This document shows, one piece after another, positions 31,172 through 37,853 of a stretch of DNA of 64,000 nt (its first letter is position 1; the number at the start of each line of letters is the position of its first letter). The DNA is from Pseudomonas phage HHBS18_1: sequence record PQ287651.1. The stretch is one strand, 5' to 3'. The notes beneath the pieces were generated by a model. The model was not told where the DNA came from. It did no database searches and saw only the letters and a list, made by a program, of their open reading frames with translations. Both the position numbers and the translations under genes were made by a program.

Positions 31172-31204
31172 TTGACAGCTTGGGCCATTCGCGTAGAATG
31201 GCCC
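31172..31204 (+). promoter_or_regulatory. promoter family member 1: TTGACA-N16-TAGAAT with palindrome GGGCCATTC-N5-GAATGGCCC over the -10
   Basis: near-identical ~45-bp sequence recurs at 31713, 34459 and 37821. Confidence 0.6.
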
Positions 31205-31271
31205 TCAAGCAAAGGGAAACACCCTGAGCAGTCACAGACAACGGAGACGCCGATAGGCGAGGAGAAAGCAG

Positions 31272-31400
31272 ATGCAAATGTTTTTCAAAACCCGTACCCA
31301 AGCCCGTGCAATGGCCTCCAATGGCCGTAAAGTGGTAGACAACGGCGCTCAAGCTGAAAAGCGCTGGGCTGTCAAGCTGAACAAAAAGGAGGCGAAATAA
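31272..31400 (+). CDS. small basic protein (42 aa)
   Basis: RBS gaggagaaa. Confidence 0.3.
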   Translation: MQMFFKTRTQARAMASNGRKVVDNGAQAEKRWAVKLNKKEAK

Positions 31401-31708
31401 TGGCTAAGTCTGTCAGTGTAGATCGCAAGCGTTCCATCCTCGACGAGGCGAAAGACGGTAGCTTTTTCAGTGTGGAATTCGTCAAGGCAGACGGCACCGT
31501 TCGAAAGATGACGTGCAAGCGCCAGATTAAATCGGCGTATGCTAACGGACAGTATGCCACTCGCAAACCGACCAGCGCCGGCAAGCCGCACCTGTATACC
31601 GCCGCTGAAGTGCTGAACATGGAAGAGGGTAAATCCGCTTTCCGTACTATCAATCTCGAAACCCTTGTCCGTGCTAAGGTGAACGGAATCGAATATAAAT
31701 TCGATTAA
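31400..31708 (+). CDS. hypothetical protein
   Basis: RBS aaaaaggagg. Confidence 0.5.
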   Translation: MAKSVSVDRKRSILDEAKDGSFFSVEFVKADGTVRKMTCKRQIKSAYANGQYATRKPTSAGKPHLYTAAEVLNMEEGKSAFRTINLETLVRAKVNGIEYKFD

Positions 31709-31712
31709 AGGG

Positions 31713-31745
31713 TTGACACCTTGGGCCATTCGCGTAGAATGGCCC
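31713..31745 (+). promoter_or_regulatory. promoter family member 2 (TTGACA-N16-TAGAAT with palindrome)
   Basis: ttgacaccttgggccattcgcgtagaatggccc. Confidence 0.6.
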
Positions 31746-31777
31746 TCAAGCAAGACAAACAACTGAGAGGCGGCAAC

Positions 31778-31990
31778 ATGAAACAAGGTACTGATTTGAT
31801 CGCTAAAGCAAGTTTCACCGCCCGGCTCCCGGGAGCTAAGCGGGGGATTTCGGTCAAGCCGGGAGATAAATTCTGGGTCACTACTCCATCCTACAGTAAC
31901 ACTGATTTCGTAGGCGTAGCGAGGAAAGGCAAAACAACCTCCTATCTTTTCACTGCTAAGGATGTACAAACTCTTTTCGAAACGGTATAA
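31778..31990 (+). CDS. hypothetical protein
   Basis: RBS gagaggcgg. Confidence 0.45.
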   Translation: MKQGTDLIAKASFTARLPGAKRGISVKPGDKFWVTTPSYSNTDFVGVARKGKTTSYLFTAKDVQTLFETV

Positions 31991-32039
31991 TCTTCAGACC
32001 CAATTGACCAACGTTTGACAACATAGGAGATTTAAAAAA

Positions 32040-32186
32040 TGGCACGTTCTATCAAGGCTTCCGACTTCGATTCCGCTTACCAGTTCGAGGCCGCCAAACG
32101 TTCCGAACGTAAAGAGTCCCGCAAATCGCGTGACAATCGCAAAGCTAGCCGAGGCCGAGCTTTCGACTTCAGTAGCGATATGTAAG
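32040..32186 (+). CDS. small basic protein (48 aa)
   Basis: RBS taggagat. Confidence 0.35.
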
Positions 32187-32421
32187 GTTTGTGCCCTGCC
32201 GGCAGGCTTAAATGCCGGCAATCCTAAGCCCATTCGTCGAGTGGTTTTAGGATTCTCAACCCCAGCGGAGATACCAAAAATGGTTCGTCAATGCGTACCC
32301 TGTCCCGATGCTCGCCATGCTTTTTGCCTTGCATGGTTGTTCGCCATGCCGGAGTTCGCCGGTCTGCCCGCTCAAAAGGACATAAAACTCTTTAAGACTT
32401 CGGGACAGTGGGCGGTATGTT

Positions 32422-32805
32422 ATGGCTAGGCGTCAACGGCTACCGTCGTGGGTGCAGGACCAGACCGAGGACGATACTCCACTCCGGGATAAGATAGACC
32501 CATACCTTAGCAAGCTCGGCGAAGTCGATAAGCTAGAGGGACAATTGCGACGGGTCAGGGATGCAACGGACCCGGACGAATACAACGAAATGGCTAAGGT
32601 ACTAAAAGCCCGACGCCGGAAGATAATGAAGCAACGTGCCCGGGCCTACGGTCTGCCAGAGGATGAGCCTACCAATGTCCAAGGGTACAGCGTACCGGAA
32701 GAGGTTCACCGTAGAGCCATCCTGTTAAGCAGTGTAAAACCTTGGATGTTCTGGACCATCCTGTCTTTCTCGATTTTTGTGTGGTTTGTTTTGAAAAACA
32801 GTTGA
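32422..32805 (+). CDS. hypothetical protein with C-terminal TM helix
   Basis: ORF. Confidence 0.45.
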   Translation: MARRQRLPSWVQDQTEDDTPLRDKIDPYLSKLGEVDKLEGQLRRVRDATDPDEYNEMAKVLKARRRKIMKQRARAYGLPEDEPTNVQGYSVPEEVHRRAILLSSVKPWMFWTILSFSIFVWFVLKNS

Positions 32806-32829
32806 CAAGGTTCCCGCCTCCTGTAGAAT
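32802..32829 (+). promoter_or_regulatory. promoter TTGACA-N16-TAGAAT (family variant without the palindrome)
   Basis: hexamers. Confidence 0.55.
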
Positions 32830-32880
32830 GGTCAGCAAGAAAGGCGGACAGGCCGCCTAGCTAGACAAAGGACAATCGTC

Positions 32881-35945: not shown

Positions 35946-35973
35946 AATAATGCCCGTTAGGCTGAAATAATGC

Positions 35974-36001
35974 TTGACGGGCGTTTTTGTACCTGTAGAA
36001 T
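35974..36001 (+). promoter_or_regulatory. promoter TTGACG-N16-TAGAAT
   Basis: family variant. Confidence 0.5.
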
Positions 36002-36059
36002 AGGCCTCAAGAAAGGAAAACAGCCGAAAGGCTCAATCTGAAACCCGGAGATCAATAAA

Positions 36060-36644
36060 ATGCTGCTAGTTCATGGGACCACTGCAAAAGGCCTGAAAGC
36101 TATCATGAACCGTCAAGGCAAGGAAGGATTAGCCGCACCTTGGGACGTTTCGGATCATGATGGAATGTCATACTTTTACAACGTGAACAAGGCTATGGAA
36201 TGGCACGATGAAGAGGAGTACGCTAAAGCGGAATGCATTACCCGTTGCCTAGAACAGGCTCAATTACAGCAAGCTATGATGGCCGAAGGCGGTAAAATCT
36301 ATGCTCTGGTGGTCAATATCCCCAAAGAGTTTCAAGACTGCGTAGAAGATGATTATTCGTGCCCTAACGCCAGTAATGAGGCTAGCTGTTTTCCAGAGGA
36401 TAACTTGGATCCGTCATGGATTGTAGAAGTGTATGAGGCAGATGTGAGTGTATGGGCCATCCCTTTCATCATAGCAGGCGTTGCAGGTAATGAGATGTTC
36501 CAATCCTACCGACTACCTGACAAACTGGTGGCGATAGCGAAGTCGGTGGCGCAGTCCAGTGACATAGACACATACGAAGCTTTCGAGATCGACCATTCAC
36601 AGGTGGAGCTATCTATTCTCGAAAATTTCAAAGATAACGCTTGA
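36060..36644 (+). CDS. hypothetical protein
   Basis: 194-aa ORF. Confidence 0.5.
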   Translation: MLLVHGTTAKGLKAIMNRQGKEGLAAPWDVSDHDGMSYFYNVNKAMEWHDEEEYAKAECITRCLEQAQLQQAMMAEGGKIYALVVNIPKEFQDCVEDDYSCPNASNEASCFPEDNLDPSWIVEVYEADVSVWAIPFIIAGVAGNEMFQSYRLPDKLVAIAKSVAQSSDIDTYEAFEIDHSQVELSILENFKDNA

Positions 36645-36669
36645 CAGTCTAGCCAACTAGCGTAGAATG
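36641..36669 (+). promoter_or_regulatory. promoter TTGACA-N17-TAGAAT
   Basis: family variant. Confidence 0.55.
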
Positions 36670-36716
36670 CCTAGCCAAGGGGTGCATAAGCGCCCCACCT
36701 CGAAAGGATACAGAAA

Positions 36717-36962
36717 ATGGCCATCGTTGATCGAACCGCAGGTAATGAAAGCCCGAATCACTGCTACATCGTTACTGGCAGCATTGGACCAGAGTTTGAG
36801 CCGACCCTGTTCACTACCCATGCGCTGGCAAAGAAGTATGCCCAGCAGATAGTGAAATACGGCAAGGCGAACGATGTTTTCCCGCCTTTCGTGCCTGTTA
36901 TCGAGACTCGCCACAAGGCAGATATGAATCGCTTCACGATTCACAACAAAATTCCAGAATAG
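36717..36962 (+). CDS. hypothetical protein
   Basis: ORF. Confidence 0.45.
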   Translation: MAIVDRTAGNESPNHCYIVTGSIGPEFEPTLFTTHALAKKYAQQIVKYGKANDVFPPFVPVIETRHKADMNRFTIHNKIPE

Positions 36963-36973
36963 GAGATAAATCG

Positions 36974-37303
36974 TTGAAACTCTCTCAAATTTTCCAAGAA
37001 GGCCTCGACTACGCAATTTCAGCCGGGACGCCGTGGTATATGTGCATACGTCTGCGGGAGATTCACTTGTTCCCCTCGCCCGTTGAAATGGCAGTTAACT
37101 CGGTCATGATGTCTGCCGGTATCTCATCAACCCCAGAGGGATGCGAATTCGCCGGCGTTGATGACTATTTCGAGGAAAGCGGCCTAGCAGCCGCATACAA
37201 AATGAACAATCAGGAAATGTCCGAATACGGGCGCTCATCCTACGCAATGTGGGTGCAATTTTGGTTCTTCGTAATCTTTGACTTAGCCCGAAAAGGGCAG
37301 TAG
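36974..37303 (+). CDS. hypothetical protein (TTG start)
   Basis: RBS aataggagat. Confidence 0.4.
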   Translation: MKLSQIFQEGLDYAISAGTPWYMCIRLREIHLFPSPVEMAVNSVMMSAGISSTPEGCEFAGVDDYFEESGLAAAYKMNNQEMSEYGRSSYAMWVQFWFFVIFDLARKGQ

Positions 37304-37338
37304 AATAGCCGGCAGATAATGTGATCTAAGGGACGATC

Positions 37339-37818
37339 ATGAAAGACAAGACTGTAGTTTATCGAATCGAGTGCAATAACGGCGAGGGCCCTTATGTTAA
37401 TGGGTGCATGACGAATTTGTCTTCCACTCCAGAACGGCCTGTCCCTGAGCATGACGGGATACCGGATGTTCGCTATTTTGAGTTCTTCGCCTTCACGTCC
37501 CCTAGGCAGCTAGACGATTGGTTTGGCGACGAATACGATGTACTGTCCTTCTATTCCACCGCACGGATCAGGGTCTATGAGGTGGACAAGCAACATGTAA
37601 GGGTCGGCATCCGGCAATGTGTATTCCGCAAGGCGGAAGCTGATTGCGTCCAAGAGGTGAGCATAGACCAATGGGTTAGCATGGTACGCGCCGGACTATT
37701 GTCCGCCTCGGTCACACAAACTGTAGCTCCACGTCCTACCGAGCAATTGTCCCTAGACCTAGGGGATGACTCGGCCTGCGAAGCTTCGAAAGAAATTTTG
37801 AAAATGTTCGGTCTGTAG
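37339..37818 (+). CDS. hypothetical protein
   Basis: 159-aa ORF. Confidence 0.5.
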   Translation: MKDKTVVYRIECNNGEGPYVNGCMTNLSSTPERPVPEHDGIPDVRYFEFFAFTSPRQLDDWFGDEYDVLSFYSTARIRVYEVDKQHVRVGIRQCVFRKAEADCVQEVSIDQWVSMVRAGLLSASVTQTVAPRPTEQLSLDLGDDSACEASKEILKMFGL

Positions 37819-37820
37819 GG

Positions 37821-37853
37821 TTGACAGCTTGGGCCATTCGCGTAGAATGGCCA
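37821..37853 (+). promoter_or_regulatory. promoter family member (identical to 31172 copy, with palindrome)
   Basis: ttgacagcttgggccattcgcgtagaatggcca. Confidence 0.6.

Follow-up and report, generated by a model that had tools for sequence, protein, structure and literature searches.

Why should the early region of a phage carry one promoter several times over, with a palindrome across the -10 box in some copies and none in others? The question is raised by Pseudomonas phage HHBS18_1 (sequence record PQ287651.1), of which 64,000 nucleotides, here called the window, were analysed, and in which seven closely similar sigma70-type promoters lie between positions 31172 and 37861. A preliminary description took the conservation of these promoters beyond their hexamers to imply an operator for a dimeric regulator. 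The explanation favoured here, at about even confidence, is a composite cassette like the early-promoter stem-loop elements (PeSLs) of T4-type phages, which would combine a host-type early promoter, a stem-loop kept by selection and a recombination joint for cassettes of ORFan genes. What is new is the constraint on the palindrome arms, the extended stem and the finding that the promoters are breakpoints of insertions and deletions (indels).

The promoter family and its published counterpart

HHBS18_1 is a Pakpunavirus of the PAK_P1/JG004/PaP1 group. About 270 records of Pseudomonas aeruginosa phages in this genus match the early-gene stretch (7 kb) at 88-98% identity, and HHBS9_1, JG004, PaP1, PAK_P4 and PA10 are among them. 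The promoter family itself is already known, because Henry et al. (2015, PLoS One, PMC4309531) described the element as a 41-nt repeat with a sigma70 promoter, a putative early promoter that PAK_P1-like phages carry 5-6 times in each genome, within a variable region of 11 kb, and KPP10-like phages twice. Theirs and ours are one element from one phage group, alike in the TTGACA...TAgAAT core, the copy numbers and the conserved bases around the hexamers; the spacer is given there as N17 and is 16 nt long in the window copies. A text search of PMC4309531 found no mention of a palindrome, a stem-loop or recombination at the repeats, and full-text literature searches with the arm sequences returned a promoter-prediction table for PaP1 as their sole match. 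BLAST with the 41 nt finds 702 copies in 158 phage records, exclusively of Pseudomonas phages, and the four palindromic window copies are 95-100% identical among themselves and to these 702 places. By this search a Pakpunavirus genome has 4-7 copies and a Nankokuvirus genome 1-2; a locus catalogue gives 4-7 per Pakpunavirus locus and 2-3 per Nankokuvirus locus.

Reading of positions 30900-38200 and a pattern search place TTGACA-N16-TAGAAT exactly on the plus strand at 31172, 31713, 32802, 34459, 36641 and 37821, while the site at 35974 has TTGACG as its -35 box and otherwise follows the same pattern; 0.03 such sites are expected by chance (100 shuffles). All seven sites of the preliminary description are thus real and its coordinates hold, but the -35 box is not uniform, the spacer is 16 nt throughout rather than 16 or 17, and two further members had been missed, TTGACT-N17-TAGAAT at 37278 (+) and TTGACA-N16-TAGAAT at 30444..30417 (-). 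The promoters start 0-30 nt 3' of the stop codon that ends the open reading frame (ORF) before them, except for 37278, which starts 23 nt before the stop of its ORF, and each is followed by 1-5 small ORFs. Their description as sigma70-type early promoters agrees with the promoter annotation at the orthologous sites in the PAK_P4 GenBank record, with RNA sequencing (RNA-seq), which assigns both gp080-gp124 of PAK_P4, with transcription at 3.5 min after infection, and the corresponding PAK_P3 region to the early class, and with the reading of Henry et al. (2015).

The catalogue comprises every TTGACN-N16/17-TAGAAT in the window and eleven related loci, so that selection was independent of the arms, and contains 8-12 promoters for each Pakpunavirus early region. 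Common to its members are G(T)AGAAT followed by G/A-G, an inferred transcript start CAAG(C/A)AAG and, in most, a short GC-rich leader hairpin. Such a hairpin lies at about +9 to +25, after CAAG(C/A)AAG, in almost every early leader (Table 1); it may be a 5' stabiliser, and the leaders move together with the promoters as part of the cassette.

The design TTGACA-N16-TAGAAT-N6-CAAGCAAG also occurs in IMG/VR contigs that have no nucleotide similarity to the window. The hexamers and the start region are a general promoter design, because these contigs share them with unrelated spacers, and the palindromic spacer is an add-on specific to Pakpunavirus and Nankokuvirus. The loci concerned are L002, L004, L005, L010, L012, L014, L015 and L017-L019, and the 97-kb contig behind L005 has at least nine such promoters in 13 kb, five of which share a spacer motif of their own, TTATCTAAAG. 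Outside the early region, at 12713-12741 (+) of the window, TTGACAGGCCCCTCCGCCTCCTATACAATGGCC resembles a diverged relative of the spacer of the 32802 promoter (CCGCCTCCTGTAGAATGG).

Constraint on the palindrome arms

The palindrome GGGCCATTC-N5-GAATGGCCC is perfect at 31182-31204 and 31723-31745 (+). At 34469-34491 (AGGCC...) and 37831-37853 (...GGCCA) the outermost pair is mismatched, leaving 8 of 9 pairs; 0.04 occurrences are expected by chance. A dyad with a common 8-bp core is thus present in all four copies for which a perfect 9-bp palindrome had been claimed, but the full nine pairs are found in two. The arms occupy -24 to -16 and -10 to -2, and the dyad therefore lies inside the footprint of RNA polymerase.

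Among 52 copies of the palindromic class from 12 genomes of the two genera, non-consensus cells make up 1.7% of the left 8-bp arm and 0% of the right one, compared with 18.8% of the 5 nt after the -35 box, 25.6% of the 3-nt loop and 16.3% of the 2 nt after the right arm. The claim of constraint beyond the hexamers is borne out by these values, the arms standing against 19-26% in the adjacent 5 nt and the loop. Between Pakpunavirus and Nankokuvirus the 41-mer is 95-98% identical, whereas the adjoining leader and coding sequence is 72-80% identical. The pattern points to purifying selection on the 8-bp arms. A purely accidental palindrome appears unlikely, because simple recent copying would not spare the arms alone.

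The extended stem

The pairing reaches beyond the core. In copies with the GCTTG allele after the -35 box, GCTT pairs with AAGC of the conserved start, which gives a 13-bp stem with a 2-nt bulge that covers most of the promoter. In copies with the GCCTA allele, 'gc' usually precedes TTGACA, and GCTTGA, which includes part of the -35 box, pairs with TCAAGC at the transcript start. One CAAGC partner is thus served by two alternative outer pairings (GCTTG after the -35 box, or GCTTGA including it), and one Nankokuvirus lineage has changed on both sides in a compensatory way (CTATA with CATAC). In 37 distinct copies, pairing of the core stem reaches 99.3%. RNA folding of the four palindromic copies gives -19 to -22 kcal/mol and z-scores of -3.6 to -4.4, while the 32802, 36641 and 37278 promoters have z-scores of about 0 to +1.2. 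The extended pairing and the compensatory change would weakly favour a structure formed by the nucleic acid itself.

Two other uses of the dyad were considered and dropped. An antisense terminator, made up of the hairpin and, behind it, the A-rich upstream element in reverse complement, is given no support by the terminator scan, and reading by eye found no -10-like hexamer with a suitably spaced -35 box that could form a minus-strand promoter inside the dyad.

Promoters as recombination joints

Breakpoints were located by BLAST of 30-41 kb against eight relatives, and the junction sequences were read directly. About 11 of 14 large-indel ends in the 31-38 kb region (our own tally) fall inside a promoter or its leader, which together make up about 7% of that region. 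One junction is the 37821 copy, whose left flank and GCG loop come from the promoter preceding gp167 of JG004, and whose GGCCA discriminator and gggatgagccc leader come from the JG004 promoter 2.2 kb further downstream; the two segments overlap by 43 bp (37820-37862; against JG004, PAK_P4, PaGz-1, PS3, Ps12 and PaP1). The outermost-pair mismatch of this copy arises because it joins two promoters, and the cassettes between them have therefore been lost from the phage.

Promoters without the dyad take part as well. In Ps12 the 32802 promoter is fused to the 35974 leader by a crossover in CAAGAAAGG, with 3.1 kb deleted, and in PAK_P4 the 35974 promoter is fused to a 36641-type leader by a crossover in GTAGAATG, with deletion of the intervening cassette. 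Insertions of single-ORF cassettes lie directly 3' of CAAGCAAG: that at 31761-32024 is present in the window and Ps12 and absent from PAK_P4, JG004, HHBS9_1, PaGz-1, PS3, PaP1 and phipa10, and an extra 219-bp cassette of PAK_P4 begins right after CAAGCAA of a 34459-type promoter. The alleles of the loop (GCG or CTG) and of the flank after the -35 box (GCTTG, GCTTA or GCCTA) are reshuffled among orthologous positions, which indicates gene conversion. The promoters are recombination joints for ORFan cassettes.

Two further rearrangements were noticed. HHBS18_1 lacks a stretch of about 1 kb, with three to four ORFs, that all eight relatives have after their first promoter (window 31227-31236 against JG004, locus L142, 6231-7231), with a junction in the leaders of two promoters where the shared microhomology is only AGCAnCCAC. 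In phipa10 (locus L148, 3150-3172) the sequence upstream of the first promoter is a duplicate of the flank that normally precedes the 34459-type promoter, so that recombination tracts can reach upstream of the repeat; the SprT-like ORF is lengthened there.

Proposed mechanism and rival explanations

The composite cassette would work as follows. Each element would serve host RNA polymerase as a strong sigma70 early promoter and drive 1-5 ORFan genes, as the literature and the annotation suggest, with a consensus -35 box, a 16-nt spacer, TAGAAT, a G-rich discriminator and a CAAG(C/A)AAG start, placed directly after the preceding stop codon. The copies would be near-identical largely by acting as direct repeats that recombine with each other and with copies in co-infecting relatives, and the homogenised repeats would in turn be joints for the deletion, insertion and swapping of cassettes, the part of the mechanism that the junction sequences display directly. 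In the main class the promoter would sit inside an interrupted palindrome from about -28 (or -36) to +5, the 8-bp arms of which are probably held by purifying selection. The last step is the weakest: the palindrome may form a stem-loop in transcripts that read through from the upstream unit, and may attenuate or insulate that unit's 3' end or make it more stable, in the manner of the PeSL stem-loops of RB49 and phi1, rather than act as an operator.

Several observations weigh against this reading. The palindromic hairpin has no U-tract and was not flagged by the terminator scan on either strand; it is followed 3' by TCAAGCAAG, a hairpin with a U-tract being found only at the separate site 35950-35989, and termination or attenuation is therefore not predicted by the sequence. 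The core stem shows no compensatory change, because the right arm, which contains part of the -10 box and the discriminator and for that reason is invariant, never varies, so that covariation is uninformative. The independent arm variants (A>G, C>T, G>A, A>C and C>G) keep a wobble pair in two cases only and show no clear wobble bias or signature of an RNA strand. That the 'gc' prefix goes with the GCCTA allele may be due simply to co-conversion of a slightly longer repeat unit, and identical arms in two genera fit a shared binding protein equally well.

Such a protein is the core of the operator explanation, which we regard as rather unlikely. The dyad GGCCATTC-N5-GAATGGCC, centred at -13 and extending from -24 to -2, would be the site of a dimeric or tetrameric protein, either a phage early product or a host factor common to both genera, which would occlude RNA polymerase and so define a regulated subset of early promoters; the copies without the palindrome may then be constitutive, as the preliminary description proposed. 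The dyad does lie exactly where repressors act, its arms are conserved and its centre and flanks variable as two half-sites would be, and the preservation of one arm sequence in both genera, despite 72-80% identity alongside, suggests a common partner; the promoters of the L005 contig, five of nine with their own conserved spacer motif, would fit as well. Its left arm GGCCATT also equals the start of the site GGCCATTACCAGCC at algD for AmrZ, a host ribbon-helix-helix protein, but the canonical AmrZ geometry GGC-N5-GCC is not found. The search for a phage protein turned up nothing suitable: Pfam and PHROGs searches on 25 ORFs (30688-39840) found no helix-turn-helix, ribbon-helix-helix or other DNA-binding domain, and three early proteins conserved between the genera had no significant match among PDB sequences. 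Neither candidate binder that the preliminary description had named is supported. The XRE regulator at 51428-51703 is a true HTH_37 protein (91 amino acids), but its gene lies among middle genes and on the minus strand (51703..51428); within Pakpunavirus the protein is conserved at 90-100%, identity of at least 90% is confined to that genus, and no homologue was detected in Nankokuvirus, whose phages also carry the palindromic promoter (distant relatives occur in Chi-like and other phages). The product of ORF 39247-39840 (+) is HNH-like, matching phrog_953 (HNH endonuclease) at profile positions 214-401 of 420, that is, in the C-terminal half only, and is perhaps a homing endonuclease in truncated form; in relatives, HNH homing endonucleases are annotated near this position. 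SrpA, a host protein that binds a palindrome in Pakpunavirus K5, was discarded as its motif TATC-N-GATA is unrelated to the dyad.

Other points also count against an operator. A pattern search of the 64-kb window found the palindrome nowhere else as an isolated copy, and viable phages with broken left arms exist (Ps12, phipa10 and a Nankokuvirus copy). Early genes are regulated more strongly over time in PAK_P3, which has two palindromic copies, than in PAK_P4 with six. A search with the 16-base dyad in one genome per species gave scattered taxa at about the chance rate, with no P. aeruginosa among the matches listed, which carries little weight. An operator also leaves the outer pairing with CAAGC unexplained. 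The stem-loop would seem to fit the extended dyad at least as well as an operator, and would also fit the junctions, for which an operator offers no explanation. That conservation of the arms implies an operator with a known candidate is not supported. The palindrome could also be a passenger, functionless in itself but part of one strong promoter variant that recombination copied from place to place in this region and from phage to phage; its conservation would then reflect recent spread and ordinary promoter constraints. We consider this quite improbable. Conversion is evidently frequent, with 1 to 7 copies per genome and alleles reshuffled between orthologous positions; part of the symmetry is family-wide, as TTC..GAA and the G/A-G after the -10 box are also found in dyad-free members, and the first promoter position is palindromic in Pakpunavirus and has an unrelated spacer in Nankokuvirus. 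Spread alone, however, would keep the loop and the pentamer as well as the arms, and loop and pentamer vary 10-fold or more compared with the arms; the GGCC on both sides appears dispensable for promoter activity, judging from the dyad-free relatives, and the island of high identity between the genera stops exactly at the edge of the element. Lowest of all we rate a role at the level of DNA, in which the palindrome would fold into a hairpin or cruciform when the DNA is single-stranded or supercoiled, would make replication stall or draw in a structure-specific nuclease and so provoke template switching or recombination, being selected as a cassette-shuffling site loosely like integron attC; this is very improbable. 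The junctions do lie within or beside the dyad and the stem is stable, but the dyad is not required for junctions, because dyad-free promoters also serve, with only 8-9 bp of shared sequence (the Ps12 and PAK_P4 events), no recombinase is linked to the elements, and nine base pairs are short for cruciform extrusion.

Coordinates and neighbouring early genes

The promoters, leader hairpins and inserted cassette are listed in Table 1. The PAK_P4 orthologue of the 35950 hairpin is annotated as 'putative terminator'. The transcript of the minus-strand promoter at 30417-30444 would run toward about 30240, in an ORF-poor gap upstream of the SprT-like gene, and a small dyad, TGACAAAggggTTTGTCA, holds its -35 box.

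Table 1. Early promoters of HHBS18_1 and associated elements (window positions; z, z-score of the RNA fold)
Feature	Position	Strand	Details	Fold
Minus-strand promoter	30417..30444	-	orthologue of the PAK_P4 promoter for antisense/non-coding RNA as16 (RNA-seq-annotated)	
Palindromic promoter, copy 1	31172..31212	+	-35 31172-31177; -10 31194-31199; inferred start near A31207; 9-bp arms 31182-31190 and 31196-31204; outer GCTT 31178-31181 with AAGC 31207-31210	-21 kcal/mol, z -3.86
Leader GC hairpin	31213-31230		gggaaacaccc	
Palindromic promoter, copy 2	31713..31753	+	perfect 9-bp arms 31723-31731 and 31737-31745	z -3.57
Single-ORF cassette, 265 bp	31761..32024	+	ORF 31778-31990; after initial transcribed sequence of copy 2; BLAST breakpoints 31760 and 32025	
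Promoter without dyad	32802..32842	+	spacer AGGTTCCCGCCTCCTG; -35 overlaps stop of ORF 32422-32805	z +0.76
Leader GC hairpin	32843-32860		ggcggacaggccgcc	
Palindromic promoter, copy 3	34459..34499	+	8-bp arms 34470-34477 and 34483-34490; outer GCTTGA 34457-34462 with TCAAGC 34492-34497	z -4.37
Putative composite terminator-promoter	35950..36014	+	13-bp hairpin 35950-35984, then TTTTT; -35 TTGACG 35974-35979 in 3' half of hairpin; -10 35996-36001	z -4.01
Leader GC hairpin	36017-36030		agccgaaaggct	
Promoter without significant dyad	36641..36681	+	-35 overlaps stop of ORF 36060-36644	z +1.22
Leader GC hairpin	36677-36698		ggggtgcataagcgcccc	
Extra promoter	37278..37319	+	TTGACT-N17-TAGAAT; small GCCC/GGGC spacer stem; inside 3' end of ORF 36974-37303	
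Palindromic promoter, copy 4 (recombinant junction)	37821..37861	+	overlapping BLAST segments	
Leader GC hairpin	37862-37875		gggatgagccc	

Among the early genes, ORFs 34740-35036 and 36974-37303 (+) are paralogues in separate promoter cassettes, both matching the same profile region of phrog_4261. Two early proteins are unusually similar between Pakpunavirus and Nankokuvirus for products of this region: the 81-amino-acid protein encoded at 36717-36962 (+), which is 78% identical, and the 44-amino-acid CxxC...CxxC zinc-ribbon protein encoded at 38142-38276 (+), which is 82% identical.

Significance

Pakpunaviruses belong to the most widely used phages in therapy against P. aeruginosa, and their early region, nearly all ORFans, is the most variable part of the genome. 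The early-gene patchwork of therapeutic isolates is explained, because cassettes are exchanged at the 41-bp promoter repeat; spontaneous deletions are predictable from the repeats, one being already present at 37821, and the repeat is a natural landing site for engineering. The element is also predicted from its sequence to be a compact, very strong and portable Pseudomonas promoter. Should the dyad turn out to be an operator or an attenuator, early transcription in this phage group would have its first defined control element. The arrangement of the early region is largely ordinary for large lytic phages, and the advance is incremental, because the basic repeat was described before and T4-type phages already show the cassette logic.

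Comparison with known systems

The Arc operator in Pant of phage P22 and the LexA boxes are repressor operators that overlap a core promoter. The present dyad resembles them in its two 8-bp arms between the -35 box and +1, its conserved arms and its variable centre. It differs in that the searches of the early ORFs gave no cognate protein, and in that the pairing reaches the transcript start in a variable register, which a protein site would not need. That the arms are half-sites for a candidate protein present in infections by both genera, either an AmrZ-like host regulator or a conserved early protein, and that this protein switches the palindromic early promoters independently of the dyad-free ones, seems to us doubtful; were it so, a two-tier early programme tied to host physiology would follow. 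AmrZ sites (Pryor 2012, PMC3325190; Jones 2014, PMC3946381) are similar to the dyad in having GGCC beside an A/T-rich stretch in each arm, but the AmrZ repressor site has GGC/GCC half-sites 5 bp apart with an A-tract linker, whereas the GGCC motifs here are 17 bp apart centre to centre. AmrZ as partner is a lead only.

The closest counterparts are the PeSLs, strong sigma70 early promoters combined with a stem-loop in RB49, phi1, PST and nt-1, where the stem-loop most often sits between the -35 box and the -10 box or over the latter (Arbiol 2010, PMC2839356; Comeau 2014, PMC4122927). PeSLs cluster in hyperplastic ORFan regions, indels result from their recombination with one another, and the stem-loop acted as a terminator in a lacZ assay (PMC2839356; PMC4122927). 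The Pakpunavirus lineage and its host are unrelated to the T4-type phages, one dominant and near-invariant stem is found here in place of the many different G/C stems of PeSLs, and the palindromic hairpin has no U-tract; terminator activity is known from PeSLs, as are mini-circles that arise when adjacent elements exchange, and the present comparison is one of sequence. In both, a sigma70-consensus promoter directly follows a stop codon and has an A/T-rich stretch upstream, early transcription being taken here from the PAK_P4 and PAK_P3 data. Both also have a stable stem-loop within or over the promoter boxes (here in the palindromic copies and at 35974, and none at 32802 and 36641), clustering in an ORFan region, and indels between close relatives that are bounded by the elements. 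As far as sequence can tell, every feature that defines PeSLs at this level is present here, and the 35974 promoter looks like a textbook composite terminator-promoter.

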